DNA of 64,000 bases from Escherichia phage A5-4: the sequence record OP744025; one strand, given 5' to 3'. The position numbers were made by a program, and so were the translations under genes. Below, in pieces: positions 3,388 to 51,768 of the stretch. The notes beneath the pieces were generated by a model. That model was given only the letters and a program-made list of their open reading frames with translations. It made no database searches and was not told where the DNA came from. The number at the start of each line of letters is the position of its first letter. The first letter of the stretch is position 1.

Positions 3388-3525
3388 ATGAAAACTTTCA
3401 ACGCAACAGCCTCGACAATTGGTTATATTATTACAGTGCAAGCCGTAGATCTGGTAGCAGCAGCAAACAAGATTAAAAGAATGATCCCGCTAGGTAGTGA
3501 ATTTTCCGTTTGGGAAGTAAAATAA
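3388..3525 (+). CDS. hypothetical small protein (45 aa)
   Basis: Hand-translated ORF ending TAA 3523-3525; aggataat RBS-like. Confidence 0.4.
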   Translation: MKTFNATASTIGYIITVQAVDLVAAANKIKRMIPLGSEFSVWEVK

Positions 3526-45227: not shown

Positions 45228-45473
45228 TTATTTAAAAAATTCGATTACATCGGCAACAGCAAAGTCACGGATATCTTGTTTATCTACATCATACGCTTTC
45301 ATAAACCACTGTTCGCCACGATGATACGGCGATTCACCATACCACATCACTGGCGTTCCAGTTACAGTACGATAACCACACTCACCTTTCCAATTGCGGT
45401 AATAAAACCGCAAGGTTGGTAAACCGTAGGTGTTATGGTCAACTTCTTGACTCATACAAATAACCCTCCTCAA
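45228..45473 (-). CDS. hypothetical protein
   Basis: ORF track. Confidence 0.5.
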   Translation of the reverse strand: MRRVICMSQEVDHNTYGLPTLRFYYRNWKGECGYRTVTGTPVMWYGESPYHRGEQWFMKAYDVDKQDIRDFAVADVIEFFK

Positions 45474-46017
45474 GTTTATCGATAAACGCTTTCACATAAA
45501 GAGTTATCATCTCTCCTTTATCCAAACCCTCATCGATAACTACATTGTACCTCAATAAAGCGTTCGTTGCAATTGTTTCTTTCTTTAATCTCTTCAAATA
45601 TTTTTTCAGGTCAGCAACAATCTCACCATGAAACTTTCTTGAAGAGTAATCCCTTTCGAGATAGTCAGCCATTCTACGCAGAACTTCACTCATTGTCAAG
45701 TCTGTTTTATCTTCCATGTGCTTAGACCAAAGTTTTTGTACACCACCTTCGAAAAGGTTCAGTGTGCTTCCAATAACACCTCTGACCTTTCCGTCAAAGT
45801 GATCATGGTCTAAACAAGGCTTCTCCATAACTTCACCCAGTATAGCACAAACTCCTTGTTGGTCAAGCAATATTTCATCACGATATTTTGCTATTTCTTT
45901 TGACCCACTTACCCAAAGATCCTTATTTAGTTTCACACGGATAGGTGTAGTCGCCTTATCCTTTGCTGTGAATAGAGGCTTCTTTGACCGCCGCTTCCTC
46001 ACTCTCGGTACTCGCAT
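45439..46017 (-). CDS. endonuclease VII-like protein
   Basis: CLDHDHFDGKVRGVIGSTLNLFEG parallels T4 endo VII HLDHDH...GKVRGLLCNLCNAAEG but the second Cys pair is missing. Confidence 0.5.
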   Translation of the reverse strand: MRVPRVRKRRSKKPLFTAKDKATTPIRVKLNKDLWVSGSKEIAKYRDEILLDQQGVCAILGEVMEKPCLDHDHFDGKVRGVIGSTLNLFEGGVQKLWSKHMEDKTDLTMSEVLRRMADYLERDYSSRKFHGEIVADLKKYLKRLKKETIATNALLRYNVVIDEGLDKGEMITLYVKAFIDKLEEGYLYESRS

Positions 46018-46624
46018 GTACTCCCTCCAAGGCTAAAGCCATTAAGAACTCACCATGTGTTGGTTCAAGAGGGTTTTCAAAATACTCTTCCATTCCGAAA
46101 CGATAAAGTGACATTGGGAAGTTTATACTACTAAACAAGCTGTTGTCAACATTATTTTTAAATTCCGGTGGGACGTTCGTATCAAATTCCCTAAAGAATT
46201 CAGATCGACTAGAGTTTATAAAAACCCTTAGAGCATTATCAAAAATTGGATTACCTTTTTGCTTAGTCAGATAAAGCAATTCTTTTAGCGAAGCCTTATC
46301 AGAAACAGACTTAAAAGAATATCCACTAATAATGATCTCGTCAAAACACATACCTCTAACTTTTTGCCAAAAAGACCACTGTGCAGAACTGATCGTCTGA
46401 ATGTGCATGTTCAGCTTAGACCGTTCATTAAACAGGTTTATATCGTAACCACTACGATCTTTCTGATAAGAACCAAACCCCAAGCTATTTGCAGTGTGCT
46501 TCAGTTTAGCAATGAAATCCCCCCTTTCGAGGGTATTCCAACAGATCACTAATTTCTTACTTTGGTAAAACTCTTCCGATTCGTATCGTTCAATAACCGT
46601 TTCGTTCAAGGTAGCATCTCCCAA
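45956..46624 (-). CDS. hypothetical protein
   Basis: ORF track; overlaps the neighbour so the true start may be internal. Confidence 0.45.
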   Translation of the reverse strand: MGDATLNETVIERYESEEFYQSKKLVICWNTLERGDFIAKLKHTANSLGFGSYQKDRSGYDINLFNERSKLNMHIQTISSAQWSFWQKVRGMCFDEIIISGYSFKSVSDKASLKELLYLTKQKGNPIFDNALRVFINSSRSEFFREFDTNVPPEFKNNVDNSLFSSINFPMSLYRFGMEEYFENPLEPTHGEFLMALALEGVHASTESEEAAVKEASIHSKG

Positions 46625-47168
46625 TTAAGTAGGCATCTGCAAGGTCTGTAGATCCACCGTTCTTACCCGTCTTTGAATATCCGGCTAAAAACCCAGGCTG
46701 CATCAACTCGCACACCTTCATCATCTGATCTTTATCCATTTTAATTTTTTCCATCTTTGTACCTTTTGCATTCATCACTTCTTGTTCTTCACCAGGTAAC
46801 TTACCTCGCGCCCAAGATTTAACGGATGTTGGTGCAATTGTGTGTATGTTGTCCATACTATACCCATCTCGAAGTAGTGTCAACTGAATACAGAAAAATA
46901 ATCCTGCAAGATCCCTTGTCGCATTACCAGCAGAGCCGAAACTCAAAGACTCCAATACGATCTTCTCAACATTAAAAGATTCACAAATATCTGCAATGTG
47001 TCTAGAGATGTATGCCATCTGCTCGACAGGGTTGTCAAATCGAATCTGCCAGTCCTTGGCATTTGCAGATCCGGTGGTTTTTAATACCTCTTTAAAGATC
47101 GGTTCATTACCGTCAAAAACTACACATGCACAAGAAGCCATACTCTGATCGATGGATAAAATTTTCAC
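46590..47168 (-). CDS. RuvC-like Holliday junction resolvase (RNase H fold)
   Basis: N-terminal KILSIDQS, KIVLESLSFGS and C-terminal DLADAYLIG fit the RuvC catalytic pattern. Confidence 0.5.
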   Translation of the reverse strand: MKILSIDQSMASCACVVFDGNEPIFKEVLKTTGSANAKDWQIRFDNPVEQMAYISRHIADICESFNVEKIVLESLSFGSAGNATRDLAGLFFCIQLTLLRDGYSMDNIHTIAPTSVKSWARGKLPGEEQEVMNAKGTKMEKIKMDKDQMMKVCELMQPGFLAGYSKTGKNGGSTDLADAYLIGRCYLERNGY

Positions 47169-47476
47169 GCTGATTCCCCTTCTTCGGTATTATCAAGATA
47201 ATGATACTGGTCGATTAAGAACACATAGTTCTTTACTTCTCCGTCCATGTAAACCATAAAAGTTACATATTTCTCATCATAGAACGGATCACCAACAACA
47301 TAGATCTGGCAGATAGAATCAACACGTTTGTCAAACCACTGGATTCGCCAAGGCTCCTCAATCATAGTCCAAGGTTCTTCAATCTTGTAGACCTGGCGCT
47401 TTGCGCCAGGAACGAGTGCTGCACGAATTTCGTCAGCGATCATAACATCATCAAAACTCTCAGAAAAACCCGACAT
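47165..47476 (-). CDS. hypothetical protein
   Basis: ORF track. Confidence 0.5.
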   Translation of the reverse strand: MSGFSESFDDVMIADEIRAALVPGAKRQVYKIEEPWTMIEEPWRIQWFDKRVDSICQIYVVGDPFYDEKYVTFMVYMDGEVKNYVFLIDQYHYLDNTEEGESA

Positions 47477-48585
47477 TAAATACCTACCCGTTTTAAAGTT
47501 GAGGCTAATGTTGTCTTATCATTTTCTGTACGCTTCATATAAACACACTGGAAAATGACAGAAGCCCACTGACCCGCCGAAAACTTACGATGATTCCCTA
47601 AGTGGTCTGTATATTCAACACCCTCAGGAAACCACTTCTTATACTGATCAATAATAGCTAACCACATACTCTTCTCGTCTGCACAAGGGGAGATGACCTG
47701 GAAAGCCGATGTTTCACCAAAGCGAAGACCCTCGAAGGTTTGATATGGTTTAACGTTATCCGCTGCATCACCAAATAGCATTTGGTAACCGAAGAATTTC
47801 TTACCCCAACCTTTTACCTTACCAGACTCCATCCAGATCTCACCCATAGAATCATCGATCAACCAAAGTTCAGGATGTTTCCATGTACGCTCTGTTGAGT
47901 CACGCATTGTGTTAAACAACAAAGAAGGAACCTGGACCTGATCCTTATCGAATGATGCCACAATATGACTAAACTTTCCAGTCTTCCGATAATTTAAATA
48001 TCCTTTATATCCAAGGATCGATAAATAATCATCTGCCTCAATACCATCCACAATGATCGCACCATACTTCTGCTGAACATATCGACGAGTCTCCCCAAGC
48101 AACAAAGGACGTAAAGTATCTTCACGGTTACCCTTATAGACCTCGGGGGTCGGGAGTGCAAGACGGAAGTTACCACTCCCACCTAAAACACCAAGCCCGT
48201 TTGCTGATCCTACGTGCTCAAGAATAGCATTGATCTTAATCTTCAATAAGTGAAGACAGTTCTCAACTGGTTCTGGAGTTTGCTTTTCAATGATCTCGAA
48301 ATCATCACGAGTCCACGGAGTAAATTCTTTTCCGCGAGCAACCGCTTTTGCTTCCATATTAATGTTTTGGTCTTTTAACCACCCACCAACAACATTCTTT
48401 TGGCGACCCCAGAACTCTGTTCGATTTTTAAACTCTTTCTCTCGGCCTGTTTCTTTGTGCCGAGCAATGATCGTTCGCTTCTCTGCACCTGCCGCAGCCA
48501 CGTATGCTGTCTGGTCAAGATCCAGAGCTACTACAACATTATCTTCTACAATGCCGGACCAATCTTTTACTTTAGGATATCCCAT
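47476..48585 (-). CDS. rnh: RNase H / flap endonuclease (T4 rnh-like 5'-3' exonuclease)
   Basis: VVALDLDQTAYVAAA and GIEADDYLSIL parallel T4 RNase H ICLIDFSQIALSTAL and YEADDHIAVL. Confidence 0.55.
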   Translation of the reverse strand: MGYPKVKDWSGIVEDNVVVALDLDQTAYVAAAGAEKRTIIARHKETGREKEFKNRTEFWGRQKNVVGGWLKDQNINMEAKAVARGKEFTPWTRDDFEIIEKQTPEPVENCLHLLKIKINAILEHVGSANGLGVLGGSGNFRLALPTPEVYKGNREDTLRPLLLGETRRYVQQKYGAIIVDGIEADDYLSILGYKGYLNYRKTGKFSHIVASFDKDQVQVPSLLFNTMRDSTERTWKHPELWLIDDSMGEIWMESGKVKGWGKKFFGYQMLFGDAADNVKPYQTFEGLRFGETSAFQVISPCADEKSMWLAIIDQYKKWFPEGVEYTDHLGNHRKFSAGQWASVIFQCVYMKRTENDKTTLASTLKRVGI

Positions 48586-49079
48586 TATAACTCCTTACCG
48601 TGATTTTCATGAAAGCCGTATTTAATCTCTGCTGCTTTTCTTGCAGCAATTGCATCCTCTTTATCTTCGAAGCGTCCTAGGTATACTCTAACACGATTTA
48701 CAGTTATAGATGCAAGCCATTTTTGCTCTTTTTCCCTCCACATGACCCCTGTGTATCCACTTTTATTACGAGAACTCTTCTTGTTGTTTCTCATATTGTC
48801 TATCTGAGATACCATACGAAGATTACTCATCCTGTTATCCCAAGGTACGTGGTTTATATGGTCAATTACCTTATTGTCCGGTATTTCTCCATTGTTAATT
48901 TCCCACGCTACACGATGACCGAGATGAAGAACGCCATCTAACCATATGTGTATATAACCCCTTTTCTTATTTCTTTTTCCTGCAACGTCACCAGGATAAA
49001 TACCATTATGTCTTCTAACTTTCCAGTACATAACCCCAGTTTCTTGATCGTAAATAAGATAATCATGCCAATTTACCAT
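48585..49079 (-). CDS. HNH homing endonuclease with AP2 DNA-binding domain
   Basis: HNH motif HLGHRVAWE...IDHINHVPWDNRMSNLR; AP2-like GYTGVMWREKEQKWLASITVNRVRVYLGRFEDKEDA. Confidence 0.7.
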   Translation of the reverse strand: MVNWHDYLIYDQETGVMYWKVRRHNGIYPGDVAGKRNKKRGYIHIWLDGVLHLGHRVAWEINNGEIPDNKVIDHINHVPWDNRMSNLRMVSQIDNMRNNKKSSRNKSGYTGVMWREKEQKWLASITVNRVRVYLGRFEDKEDAIAARKAAEIKYGFHENHGKEL

Positions 49080-49582
49080 CAGAAAGCCTCGCCGTAATCT
49101 TCGTCTTCTTTAACTTCTTTTACTGGTCGCTTGAATTTGAAATCTTTACCCATATATTCATACAAATAATCAATATTCAAAGACCATTCTTGCTTACTTC
49201 TTTGTCGCCACAATGCCGCAGCTTGCATAATGTATTCTTCAGCAGCCTTCTTGTCAACACCGTTAACTTTCATAAAGTGTCGTATTGCACGAGCCATGTT
49301 ACCAGTTGCTTGAGCACGACCGATGTGTTTTACTTCATGGCAAGGAGGGCATAAAGCAATCACGCCTCGTAACACAACTTCACTATTAACAAAGTCCCAC
49401 ACTTCGTGGGCCTCTACCGGATGCTTACGACCGTTCCCGCCTTTTCCACCACAAACTTCACAAGTGTAGTTGGCCTCTTGATAACATTTACGACGAACTT
49501 TGTCCCATCCCGCTTGGGTAAGGTAAGATCGAAGGTTGTTGTCCCAAGCTGTGCTTGGGATTAATTCGATAGTTAATTTCAT
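49079..49582 (-). CDS. zinc-binding HNH-like nuclease (tentative)
   Basis: Cys/His pattern CEVCGGKG...HPVEAHEVW...CPPCHEVKH. Confidence 0.35.
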   Translation of the reverse strand: MKLTIELIPSTAWDNNLRSYLTQAGWDKVRRKCYQEANYTCEVCGGKGGNGRKHPVEAHEVWDFVNSEVVLRGVIALCPPCHEVKHIGRAQATGNMARAIRHFMKVNGVDKKAAEEYIMQAAALWRQRSKQEWSLNIDYLYEYMGKDFKFKRPVKEVKEDEDYGEAF

Positions 49583-50134
49583 TTAGTATGCCTCACATTT
49601 ACCAATCATATTCATAGCTTCAGAAACATCGATAATCATATCGGTTGCTTCGTCCCAAGCTTTCCCCAAGAGATTCTCACCATACCAGAAACTTTCATCA
49701 TCTACCATAGGGTGATTCTCATCCATACCGATCCCCCATATACGATCTCTCGGAGAAGCCTCTACAAACTTTAAACCCTTTTTACGGTAACCTACCGCAA
49801 GTTCACGGAGATTACCATTATCACACATACGACTATACACTAAACGGGTTACAATGTTAAATTTATTTTCATCCCAAACTGCCTGATCAAAATCCTTAAC
49901 TTTACGACCTAGCCTTTTAGCACCTTGTGGAGTTACAGATTTAAGGATTCTTTCCGCTGAAGCTTTGTCACCGAAAAGCATAGCCTTTTCATACATCATG
50001 TAATGCTCACCTGTGTGGAAATAAACCCCTTTCATCTTCTGGTCGAAGTTTGAAAACGGAGAGATCTCCTGGTAATGATTACTAAAAACATCACGAAAAG
50101 AATAAAAGAACACATGTTTATCAGTGACTCGCAT
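49583..50134 (-). CDS. NADAR-domain (YbiA-like) protein
   Basis: Motifs FFYSF, FSNF, GEHYMMYEKAMLF, LGRKVKDFD, WGIGMDENHP typical of NADAR/DUF1768; start set at internal Met. Confidence 0.6.
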   Translation of the reverse strand: MRVTDKHVFFYSFRDVFSNHYQEISPFSNFDQKMKGVYFHTGEHYMMYEKAMLFGDKASAERILKSVTPQGAKRLGRKVKDFDQAVWDENKFNIVTRLVYSRMCDNGNLRELAVGYRKKGLKFVEASPRDRIWGIGMDENHPMVDDESFWYGENLLGKAWDEATDMIIDVSEAMNMIGKCEAY

Positions 50135-50270
50135 AAAAACTCCTATAGATCTAATGCAGATATTGAAATCAAGAATAGCACTACCGAAAGTAATCCGTCC
50201 GGCGTACTGAAAAATCCAATCCAGCACGCCCTTGTGAACAGGTAGAATGCCAGTATTAAAACGATAACCC

Positions 50271-50507
50271 CTAAGAATGTTTCGATTTTTCTAACTCCCG
50301 AGCCATAATCTTCGTAATGTCAGCAAACGCAACATAAGCATGTTTGTAACAACCTACATCAACATTGAGAGACTTGATCTCCTCTTCTAATGAATTTATT
50401 ACATGAAGTGTTTGACGAATAAGATCAACATCCTTAGTCGTTACATTAGGAGAATCCGTCATCAACTTAAGCCTTTCTTTAATCGTTTCGATATCTTGAT
50501 TATACAT
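50271..50507 (-). CDS. hypothetical protein
   Basis: Internal Met of track ORF 50271..50663 with RBS ggag. Confidence 0.45.
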   Translation of the reverse strand: MYNQDIETIKERLKLMTDSPNVTTKDVDLIRQTLHVINSLEEEIKSLNVDVGCYKHAYVAFADITKIMARELEKSKHS

Positions 50508-50832
50508 TAACAATCTCCAGTAAAGATCCAGGAATTGAAACAGAACAGTTTTCTGCCATCGGGAATTTAGCAATCCAATCTGAAAGGCTGCAATAGGCAG
50601 ACCAATCAAAGTCTTCGTCGAAAACGACAATATTATTAAATTCCACACCATCAAGATTAACAATCTTTTTAATAATCAGGTCTTCGATCTGACTTGCCTT
50701 AAAAAGACCACAGATTTTGGATGGCAAGTTAAGTCCCCACCGTTCACGAAATTCAGAATCTTCAAACTTGAAGAAACCAACTGCCTTTGCCAAGTCTGCT
50801 GCACGGACCTCTAAAATAACCAATTTACTCAT
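50500..50832 (-). CDS. hypothetical protein
   Basis: ORF track. Confidence 0.5.
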   Translation of the reverse strand: MSKLVILEVRAADLAKAVGFFKFEDSEFRERWGLNLPSKICGLFKASQIEDLIIKKIVNLDGVEFNNIVVFDEDFDWSAYCSLSDWIAKFPMAENCSVSIPGSLLEIVNV

Positions 50833-51081
50833 TTAATTTCCTCCTCGATCTGTGTAGTGCTGTATAATCTCATTTAAACATTTACCTGTCAACGAAAATT
50901 TCTTAGCTACATAACACTCAGCAATGTGTTCTTTCAAATCCTTAGAGTCTGTGTAGCCCATCTCTACAATGAAGTTACGAATCTTAGCCTTATCTTTATC
51001 ATTTAAAGAATTAAAATAATCACTTTTAGAATTAATTATCCTCATTTTCAAGTTTCCTGATCTGATAGTAAAGAGAGTCAA
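50833..51081 (-). CDS. hypothetical protein
   Basis: ORF track. Confidence 0.5.
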   Translation of the reverse strand: MTLFTIRSGNLKMRIINSKSDYFNSLNDKDKAKIRNFIVEMGYTDSKDLKEHIAECYVAKKFSLTGKCLNEIIQHYTDRGGN

Positions 51082-51304
51082 TGATCTCTTCGTTGGCCTT
51101 AATGTACATATCCCGTAAGAAAGGTTTCAACCCATCACGCAAAATATTTCCATCACAAGCATCGTTCAGGTATGGATGACCTAGAGCCTCCCAAGCAGGC
51201 TGATTAGTATACGTACCCCAACCCTCTTTCATCATCTGGTTAAGATGCTCGATTTGTTTTATCTTAAGCTGTAAAGCTTCAATAGTAAGCTGTTTAATGT
51301 TCAT
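51032..51304 (-). CDS. hypothetical protein
   Basis: ORF track; overlap suggests the true start may be internal. Confidence 0.45.
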   Translation of the reverse strand: MNIKQLTIEALQLKIKQIEHLNQMMKEGWGTYTNQPAWEALGHPYLNDACDGNILRDGLKPFLRDMYIKANEEIIDSLYYQIRKLENEDN

Positions 51305-51768
51305 CAGTAAAGGTCCTCCGAGTAAAGTTCTTTCTCACTTCCACCACGTTCGATACGTACCTGTCCGGCATAAGTTGCAATAACCATTGCTTCTTCACGA
51401 GTCCAGTAATTTGAATATTGATCAATAAAGCCTTGGTCGTCACCACAGACTTGTTGTGAAACTAATTGGGGACCCACCACATCAAGCACTTCAGCCATAT
51501 CTTTAGAGTAATGACGAGCACCAGGAATAACCAGAGTTCCACCACCCTTCAATTTAAACCGATTAGCAGCACATACAATAGTACGTTGAACTTTTTGATC
51601 ATTATTCCAATGACATGTTTGCCAACAGATCTCAGGAATATCGTCCATCATATCTTCGAAAGAGTAATCAGCATTTCCGTATGACTGTAGTTTTTCAAAC
51701 AAACTCTCTGGAGTTTCACGAGACAAAGCTTTATCCAATAATTCCAGGCGTTCTTTAAAAGTTTTCAA
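51304..51768 (-). CDS. hypothetical protein
   Basis: ORF track. Confidence 0.55.

Follow-up and report, generated by a model that had tools for sequence, protein, structure and literature searches.

In an rV5-like coliphage, the 164-aa gene at 48585..49079, here called HEG-A, is very probably a homing endonuclease gene, free-standing and of the HNH(HNN)-AP2 type. It is lodged where relatives have a 13-nt spacer, with a resident gene of putative HNH fold on one side and the gene for a 5'-3' exonuclease on the other. It lies in a 64-kb window, by which we mean the whole stretch of DNA analysed (64,000 nt of Escherichia phage A5-4). The initial annotation had likened this gene to those of T-even-like phages; the phage is instead rV5-like (Vequintavirinae). 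Because relatives keep the empty site, HEG-A can be regarded as an ordinary but well-supported phage homing endonuclease.

Gene order and domain architecture

Both open reading frames between the exonuclease gene and the NADAR-family gene, 48585..49079 (164 aa) and 49079..49582 (167 aa), are real and lie on the minus strand, co-oriented with their neighbours. The features of the locus, with the basis of each assignment in brackets, are as follows.

47476..48585, minus strand: gene for a 5'-3' exonuclease, part of the conserved core and directly downstream of the insertion (phrog_107 'exonuclease', 2e-66)
48150..49213, minus strand: tract of about 1.06 kb, about 100% identical to the metagenomic Logan contig L009 (sliding identity)
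48386..48585, minus strand: hypervariable patch of mostly synonymous changes over the exonuclease 5' end, first ~200 nt (identity comparison)
48583..48604, minus strand: downstream junction, with the TAATG stop/start overlap of HEG-A and the exonuclease gene at 48583-48587 (sequence)
48585..49079, minus strand: HEG-A, very probable free-standing HNH-AP2 homing endonuclease gene, 164 aa (ORF, Pfam and PHROG)
48627..48761, minus strand: AP2-type DNA-binding domain of HEG-A, residues 107-151 (Pfam, profile and model)
48789..48917, minus strand: HNH_3 catalytic core of HEG-A (His-Me finger, HNN-type), residues 55-97, including D73, H74, N86 and N95 (Pfam and profile)
49077..49081, minus strand: upstream junction TGATG, in which the stop of the 167-aa gene overlaps the HEG-A start (sequence)
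49079..49582, minus strand: resident 167-aa gene of CxxC type with a putative HNH fold, outside the mobile element (phrog_5200 and motif)
49583..50227, minus strand: NADAR-family gene, upstream neighbour of the 167-aa gene (Pfam NADAR, 6e-37)

The exonuclease gene has homologues in 613 phage records. Searches against Pfam and PDB sequences returned no match for it, and its identity rests on the PHROG match together with the annotations of relatives; the label 'rnh' given to it initially holds only as an analogy. The NADAR gene is annotated in relatives as a 552-nt version, and its true start is probably the ATG at 50134.

HEG-A is a separate ORF between two complete genes, with a one-base overlap at each end. 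The upstream junction of the window (TTCTGATG) recurs in phiTE and DU_PP_I. The Shine-Dalgarno sequence of the exonuclease gene, AAGGAG, lies within the last HEG-A codons at the downstream junction; where the NADAR gene meets the 167-aa gene, an ATG adjoins a TAA at 49580-49585. The abutting start and stop codons described in the initial annotation are thus present at all three junctions. Matches to promoter and terminator consensus sequences for HEG-A were no commoner than in shuffled sequence. An Rfam search of 47000-51000 gave no match at E<=1, which argues against a group I intron or structured RNA around HEG-A, and the lack of terminal inverted repeats and of a target-site duplication argues against a transposon or IS-type insertion. 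Mobile elements of a type other than a homing endonuclease gene (HEG) are therefore unlikely here.

HEG-A matches Pfam HNH_3 (PF13392) at E=6.3e-16 (58.2 bits; cut-off 24.8) and phrog_99 'HNH endonuclease' at 4e-66. As a single sequence it matches Pfam AP2 at E=2.4e-4, with 21.8 bits, which is below the gathering cut-off of 33.3. A family profile of 54 homologues matches I-HmuI (1U3E) at 9.3e-9 over residues 29-103, the plant AP2 protein WRI1 at 2.4e-7 over residues 103-155, and the AP2 domain of TEM1 at 0.003. Residues D73, H74, N86, N95 and N98 are present in HEG-A and invariant across the 54 homologues, and in the profile alignment the catalytic residues align with the DH...N...N motif of I-HmuI.

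The AF2 model of HEG-A (pLDDT 87.1) finds as its top Foldseek matches I-HmuI and the AP2 domains of ERF1 and TEM1. The first of these, 1u3e_M, was returned with prob 1.00 and a whole-chain TM of only 0.43, a low value because the C-terminal domains differ. The C-terminal domain of the model consists of strands 112-115, 120-127 and 130-137 and a helix at 140-154, the three-stranded sheet plus helix of the AP2 fold, and it matches AtERF1 (1gcc; TMt 0.70, 35% identity, prob 1.00) and TEM1 (prob 1.00). Profiles and model together indicate that HEG-A is a predicted nuclease in which an I-HmuI-like HNH_3 nuclease domain precedes an AP2 DNA-binding domain, in agreement with the pairing first proposed for this free-standing gene.

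In comparisons with L011 and phiTE, HEG-A shows a dN of 0.18-0.21, with dS saturated and hence no computable dN/dS ratio, and amino-acid identity exceeds nucleotide identity. The ORF is intact, and these comparisons indicate purifying selection. Neither HEG-A nor the 167-aa gene has a paralogue elsewhere in the 64-kb window, and we found in the literature no published cleavage, nicking or homing measurement for HEG-A or its lineage.

Empty sites and the resident 167-aa gene

The close relatives UPEC06, LTH01 and A73/W70 have an empty site, with a 13-nt spacer in the position of the 495-nt ORF of the window; in UPEC06, LTH01 and A73, 17 bp stand in place of 497 bp. The site is also empty in Cronobacter phage CR9 and in 16 of the 19 IMG/VR loci that carry the same gene pair (gap 12-22 nt). 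At the downstream junction, which in the window takes the place of the spacer, the sequences read ...GGTAAGGAGTTATAATGGGA... in the window and ...TTTTAATAAGGAGAGGTCTATGGGT... in UPEC06. The initial annotation had proposed insertion at an intergenic site and named empty alleles in related phages as the means of checking it, and these alleles bear the proposal out.

Occupied junctions are found in the window, L009, L011, phiTE, CB7 and P7_Pc. All six homologues of at least 60% identity whose context was read lie at this same junction (L009, 99%; L011, 78%; phiTE, CB7 and P7_Pc, 72-75%; L010, 60%), and homologues of 54% identity or less lie in other phages at other sites. In A7_1, HEG-A is absent from the slot and a 60-aa ORF is found there; in rV5 the occupants are gp088 and gp089. 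All three are unrelated small ORFs, and none is a degenerate HNH-AP2 gene. From these alleles, the 13-nt gap between two conserved replication-region genes is well supported as the HEG-A insertion site.

The 167-aa gene matches phrog_5200 'HNH endonuclease' at 1e-70, with no match in Pfam, and its family shares the invariant residues CxxC...H-E...CxxCH...H, which confirms the second Cys/His nuclease-like pattern noted earlier. It is syntenic in every Vequintavirinae locus examined, with or without HEG-A, in relatives ranging from E. coli phages to Cronobacter CR9, Klebsiella KNP2 and rV5, and no presence/absence polymorphism was seen among the close relatives examined. The initial annotation had placed both genes in a single mobile cassette, inserted as one unit between the exonuclease and NADAR genes. 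The two genes are indeed adjacent and co-oriented with a one-base overlap, both are nuclease-like, and the occurrence of the 167-aa family on 290 IMG/VR contigs, in many unrelated phage contexts, suggests that it may once have been mobile. However, the 167-aa gene stands at the same position beside an empty HEG-A site in UPEC06, LTH01, A73, CR9 and the 16 IMG/VR loci, and the boundaries of the insertion map exactly to the HNH-AP2 ORF alone. Moreover, no more than the final 131 nt of the 167-aa gene fall within the tract shared with L009, and the one free-standing HNH gene that Pectobacterium phage CB7 has in common with CR3 is the middle member of its homologous trio (PMC7344957). The empty-site alleles refute a two-gene cassette for this clade, and we consider such a unit highly improbable. 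As the 167-aa gene is resident in every relative examined, the insertion lies between it and the exonuclease gene: the exonuclease side of the original placement stands, and the NADAR side does not.

The other junction of the 167-aa gene is also used. A second HNH_3 gene, HEG-B, is found there in A73 and phiTE. It is accompanied by a divergent 167-aa allele that resembles the one in phiTE, and in L009 a deletion remnant of HEG-B is fused to NADAR. Pectobacterium-type alleles occur in the E. coli phages A73 and L009. Both junctions of the 167-aa gene are insertion hot-spots. A bolder reading, which we regard as rather doubtful, would make the 167-aa gene the centre of a small 'HEG island', in which two different HNH_3 HEGs home into its two junctions and, by co-conversion, carry whole 167-aa alleles, together with the 5' end of the essential exonuclease gene, from phages of one host genus to those of another. 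The resident HNH gene would then have started as a HEG and long since become fixed, or else be a nuclease that through its own activity turns its flanks into recombination hot-spots.

Flank mosaicism and a proposed homing mechanism

Sequence identity around HEG-A is uneven. The tract shared with L009 runs from 131 nt before the end of the 167-aa gene, through HEG-A, to about 440 nt into the exonuclease gene; sliding identity between the window and L009 is 96-100% in the tract and 92-96% in the backbone, but falls to about 55% towards the 5' end of the 167-aa gene. We infer that 48150..49213 is a recently exchanged segment comprising the HEG and its flanks. Within the exonuclease gene, identity is 67-77% in the 5' patch and 98-100% deeper in the gene, and the first 75 nt (48511..48585) differ even from A73. 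Compared with A73, mismatches number 14 in these 75 nt and 16 in the other 1035 nt (Fisher p=8e-10), and codon changes are 11 synonymous versus 2 non-synonymous. The same concentration of divergence at the 5' end is found against the other relatives (p=5e-11 to 6e-26). Taken together, the empty sites, the site fidelity, the L009 tract and the exonuclease patch are the marks that homing with co-conversion would be expected to leave. The mosaic tracts would also fit the biased inheritance of flanking markers that the initial annotation ascribed to such elements.

Part of this pattern may have another history. A73 lacks HEG-A, yet has its exonuclease sequence in common with the window from nt 73 on, and part of the flank mosaicism therefore predates the insertion or is independent of it. 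Likewise, HEG-A has diverged from its phiTE counterpart (75% aa identity) about as far as the exonuclease has (~74-75%), so that a long vertical association, in which the gene was lost repeatedly, accounts for part of the distribution no less well than horizontal homing. In its full form, this explanation holds that the gene entered an ancestor of the Vequintavirinae long ago and is now an inactive or tolerated passenger whose patchiness reflects repeated loss and not ongoing homing. The matching divergence from phiTE fits such a history, as does the fact that the locus does degenerate, with the HEG-B remnant of L009 as an example and unrelated small ORFs filling the slot in A7_1 and rV5. An inactive relic is harder to reconcile with an intact ORF that retains all the invariant catalytic residues under purifying selection, or with a stretch of HEG and flanks that is about 100% identical to L009 when the backbone around it reaches just 92-96%. 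In addition, phiTE and DU_PP_I, members of one genus, hold in the same slot two HNH-AP2 genes that are only 47% identical, and empty sites in different genera have the same short spacer with its ribosome-binding site, which looks ancestral and not like the outcome of precise deletions. On balance we find this explanation unlikely.

Purifying selection could also mean that HEG-A is kept for the benefit of the phage, through the cutting of competitor or host DNA or as an AP2-type regulator, instead of for its own propagation; the literature records the co-option of HEG domains and notes that HEGs can shut out competitors or influence defence. Against this, HEG-A is dispensable, as the nearest relatives lack it, its distribution follows the site and not a function, and there is no sign of a regulatory target. 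Exclusion of competitors by cutting their empty alleles would moreover be the same mechanism as homing. A domesticated role therefore seems very unlikely.

Under the homing that we favour, co-infection by a HEG-A phage and an empty-site relative would bring the HEG-A protein, which is predicted to cleave and may be active today, into contact with the DNA of the relative. The AP2 domain would bind a specific sequence close to or at the junction, with the opening ~75-200 nt of the exonuclease gene as its most likely place; the I-HmuI-like His-Me finger would then nick or cut the recipient DNA. Recombinational repair templated on the HEG-carrying genome would copy the HEG, with a variable length of flank, into the recipient. 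The carrier genome would be protected because the insertion and the adjacent synonymous recoding change the target. HEG-A would be co-transcribed with its neighbours, and its insertion would leave the host operon undisturbed because of the one-base overlaps and the exonuclease ribosome-binding site within the last HEG-A codons.

The exonuclease gene is the probable carrier of the HEG-A target site. Across genera, we found no nucleotide pattern by which alleles with and without the HEG are cleanly or consistently told apart. In the Certrevirus exonuclease gene, a GC-rich stretch some 90 nt from the start, GCGGCGGCGGGCGCGG, encodes the conserved motif VAAAGAE and is degenerate in E. coli phages. 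As it resembles a GCC box, we speculate that it is a candidate AP2 target.

Relation to known systems and significance

I-HmuI of phage SPO1 is intron-encoded, nicks one strand and binds DNA through helical or HTH-type C-terminal modules. Like I-HmuI (PDB 1U3E) and the HNH_3 family, HEG-A has an N-terminal His-Me finger with the D-H...N...N arrangement and without zinc-binding cysteine dyads; unlike I-HmuI, it is free-standing, with no intron, and carries an AP2 domain instead of those C-terminal modules.

HNH-AP2 (HNN-AP2) genes are a recognised class of phage HEGs, described from RB16, RB43 and JSE, from T5 (hegG and hegJ) and from the Xanthomonas phages Xp10, OP1 and Xop411 (Magnani 2004; PMC2993671; PMC2248197). 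HEG-A resembles them in two-domain architecture, size (~160-170 aa), patchy distribution and a setting among DNA-metabolism genes, at sequence identities below 50%. The contrast drawn in the study of Xoo phages between dispersed HNN-AP2 genes and a single-copy CxxC-type HNH gene in a fixed context matches that between HEG-A and the 167-aa gene. In that study no conserved flanks were found and sequence-independent transfer was proposed, whereas the HEG-A lineage is strict to one junction, with empty-site alleles and co-conversion-like tracts visible.

The closest counterparts are the Certrevirus trios CB7_219/220/221 and phiTE_172/173/174, whose genes are direct homologues and keep the order of the window: phiTE_172 lies at the same junction and has 75% identity to HEG-A, phiTE_173 corresponds to the 167-aa gene and phiTE_174 to the HEG-B of A73. 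They differ from the present locus in host genus and phage genus, and of the two flanking HEGs just one is present in the window. The CB7 genes of the Pectobacterium phage have already been listed as free-standing HNH genes (PMC7344957, Table 3), in a list given without analysis of empty sites, flank mosaicism or targets.

HEG-A also shares with the T4-type Seg and Mob HEGs, and with the 'HEG island' and 'boundaries of exchange' of Barth et al. 2023 (PMC10448857), an intergenic position beside a conserved DNA-metabolism gene, co-conversion of flanks and the clustering of HEGs at favoured loci, where they mark exchange boundaries. It is unlike both enzyme groups: Seg proteins are of the GIY-YIG type, and Mob proteins, though HNH enzymes, lack an AP2 domain. 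The 'IPA-HNH' of ICP1 is too divergent for Pfam HNH_3, of which HEG-A is a canonical member.

The locus reveals no new kind of system, and the 167-aa family is uncharacterised and without a Pfam model. For annotation, it shows that the two adjacent "HNH" genes differ in kind. HEG-A itself is a candidate site-specific nuclease or nickase with an AP2 reader domain. In the rV5-like phages the locus provides a clean natural example of the HEG life cycle, with one junction found empty, occupied, replaced and degenerate, and its flank tracts appear to move conserved exonuclease sequence between phages. Because HEGs create local mosaicism, such loci are relevant to the recombination and phylogeny of the Vequintavirinae, phages that are used in phage therapy and biocontrol.

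Gene layout and the HNH-AP2 protein

Every gene across 45.4-52 kb of the window is encoded on the minus strand, and those discussed here follow one another in this order:

50227..49583, minus: NADAR gene (Pfam, 6e-37)
49582..49079, minus: 167-aa ORF, second in gene order after NADAR
49079..48585, minus: HEG-A, the 164-aa HNH-AP2 ORF, third in gene order
48585..47476, minus: 5'-3' exonuclease, 369 aa (phrog_107, 2e-66)
46590-47168, minus: RuvC-like resolvase gene, adjoining the pair formed by the next two
45956-46624, minus: 222-aa ORF upstream of the endonuclease VII-like gene (phrog_12410, function unknown)
45439-46017, minus: endonuclease VII-like gene (Pfam, 7e-07)

HEG-A meets its neighbours in one-base stop/start overlaps on both sides (TGATG and TAATG), and the 167-aa ORF starts directly behind the NADAR stop codon; the coordinates and abutting codons given in the initial annotation are therefore correct. 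Downstream of the exonuclease gene lie the RuvC-like and endonuclease VII genes, which places two junction-resolving nucleases less than 2 kb from it. The endonuclease VII-like gene and the 222-aa ORF share 62 nt. The NADAR ORF as listed (49583-50227) has a GTG start and 214 aa; in relatives the annotated protein has 183 aa and begins at an internal ATG (window ~50134). Translation probably leaves out the 5' extension. For three small upstream genes (50833-51768), the matching Logan contig shows T4 Y16B/Y16C/Y16D-like Pfam families, and the annotation in relatives is 'anti-restriction nuclease'.

The proposed HNH-AP2 architecture of HEG-A is confirmed by several lines of evidence. Against Pfam, HNH_3 scores well above threshold and AP2 below it, while a profile built from 54 homologues matches the homing endonuclease I-HmuI (1U3E, 9e-9) over residues 29-103 as well as two plant AP2 domains, those of WRI1 (2.4e-7) and TEM1, across residues ~103-155. 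Residues D73, H74, N86, N95 and N98 are present and invariant across the family, and the AlphaFold model (pLDDT 87) retrieves I-HmuI as its first Foldseek match, followed by AP2 domains (AtERF1, TMt 0.70). The gene has a G+C content of 37.8% compared with 42.9% in its neighbours. With dN of 0.18-0.21, saturated dS and higher identity in amino acids than in nucleotides, its sequence indicates that HEG-A has evolved under purifying selection. No intron was found around HEG-A, nor were flanking terminal or target repeats, and promoter or terminator signals for the gene did not rise above chance level.

Occupied and empty alleles at the exonuclease junction

The window is ~94-98% identical to the unclassified Vequintavirinae coliphages A73, W70, A7_1, UPEC06 and LTH01, an affinity that identifies the phage as rV5-like and not, as initially assumed, T-even-like. 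When the junction between the 167-aa and exonuclease genes is compared across relatives, UPEC06, LTH01 and A73 carry a 13-nt spacer, TAATAAGGAGAGGTCTATG, so that the 497 bp at window 48586..49082 have a counterpart of 17 bp in these genomes. The slot is also empty in Cronobacter phage CR9 and in 16 of the 19 IMG/VR loci in which a 167-aa homologue precedes the exonuclease gene; the other three hold an HNH-AP2 gene. Empty-site alleles are thus common, contrary to the refuting case named in the initial annotation, a gene present at this site in all relatives. Other contents occur as well. In A7_1, an orphan 60-aa ORF unrelated to HEG-A fills the slot (L001 3087-3266; no Pfam or PHROG match), and the NADAR gene is broken into two ORFs (L001 3767-4410) and is probably a pseudogene. 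In rV5, two small ORFs lie between gp087, the 167-aa homologue, and the exonuclease gene (L012 1802-2460): gp088 (phrog_6208, function unknown) and gp089 (phrog_14449, labelled 'transposase'), neither related to HNH-AP2.

The closest homologues of HEG-A are found in the Logan contigs L009 (99%) and L011 (78%), in phiTE, CB7 and P7_Pc (72-75%) and in contig L010 (60%). These six, the close homologues whose context was read, all occupy exactly the same junction; P0003 is a further close homologue (71%). Homologues of at most 54% identity reside in other phages, where their neighbours are different genes of replication or recombination. The genus Certrevirus by itself has two kinds of occupant, the phiTE type and one only 47% identical to it (DU_PP_I, PcCB7V), and Mydovirus phages hold a third type. 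No coliphage in INPHARED carries the HEG-A lineage; only four records reach at least 60% identity, all from Pectobacterium phages. In the RefSeq entry for Klebsiella phage KNP2, the HNH-AP2 gene at the slot is interrupted by a run of N (L013 ~2320-2430), so this copy cannot be judged intact.

The flanks of the slot bear marks of exchange. Between about 49213 and 48150, a tract spanning HEG-A and its flanks, window and L009 are ~100% identical, in a backbone of 92-96% identity; over its 5' three-quarters, the 167-aa gene has an identity of only ~55%. Across its initial 200 nt, the exonuclease gene shows 67-77% identity to close relatives, as against 98-100% further in, mostly through synonymous changes. 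Relative to A73, excess differences do not reach beyond nt 75 (14/75 versus 16/1035, p=8e-10). The 167-aa gene is likewise recoded over its final 12 nt, which agree with the TTCTGATG junction found in other genomes with an occupied slot.

The resident 167-aa gene and its NADAR-side junction

The initial annotation had treated HEG-A and the 167-aa gene as a two-gene cassette inserted next to NADAR. The 167-aa gene is found at the same place in all the relatives examined and is therefore a resident gene outside the inserted unit; the element consists of HEG-A alone, inserted between the 167-aa and exonuclease genes.

We read the 167-aa product as an HNH-fold zinc protein because it matches phrog_5200 'HNH endonuclease' (1e-70), its family has a set of invariant residues (C41, C44, H59, E60, W62, C78, C81, H82 and H86), and the family profile weakly matches the HNH domains of group II maturase, GVE2 HNH, IscB and McrA. 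A further weak match is to the HNH-like zinc protein DotN. Nuclease activity is plausible. Pfam and NCBIfam returned no family for this protein. The CxxC-HNH family has no Pfam model, yet it occurs in 290 IMG/VR contigs, some of 250-675 kb, including contexts without the exonuclease gene (loci L034-L093); it is a widespread, uncharacterised family of phage proteins.

The NADAR-side junction of the 167-aa gene is also an insertion hot-spot: A73/W70, phiTE, DU_PP_I and PcCB7V carry there a different HNH_3 gene, HEG-B. In A73, HEG-B (A73_190; L004 3616-4125) is accompanied by a phiTE-like 167-aa allele (L004 3101-3619; compare window 49079-49582) with 66% amino acid identity to that of the window, the last 131 nt of which switch to the window/UPEC06 type. 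In L009 (Logan SRR28047936 contig, 3411-3486), HEG-B has been reduced to its last ~75 nt, joined in frame to a NADAR gene missing its last ~34 nt; this piece is what a deletion has left of a homing endonuclease gene.

Probable homing and a candidate target

Phage homing endonuclease genes include HNH-AP2 genes as a recognised class (Magnani 2004; PMC2993671; PMC2248197). In Xanthomonas phages, dispersed HNN-AP2 genes have already been described against a single-copy CxxC-HNH in fixed context. The homologous trio of Pectobacterium phage CB7 has been tabulated as free-standing HNH genes, with only the middle gene common to CR3 (PMC7344957).

The reading of HEG-A as a single-gene homing endonuclease is supported, and classical homing most likely describes the locus. 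The putative target of HEG-A would lie in the 5' end of the exonuclease gene, since the recoded tract is asymmetric, reaching ~12 nt into the 167-aa gene and ~75-200 nt into the exonuclease gene. In Certrevirus, the conserved exonuclease VAAAGAE motif is encoded by the GC-rich GCGGCGGCGGGCGCGG, whose complement resembles a GCC box (L005-L008, nt ~85-105 of the gene; window ~48481-48500); the stretch is less GC-rich in E. coli phages. We speculate that it may be a candidate AP2 binding site. The HEG-A locus illustrates well the cycle of gain, exchange and decay.
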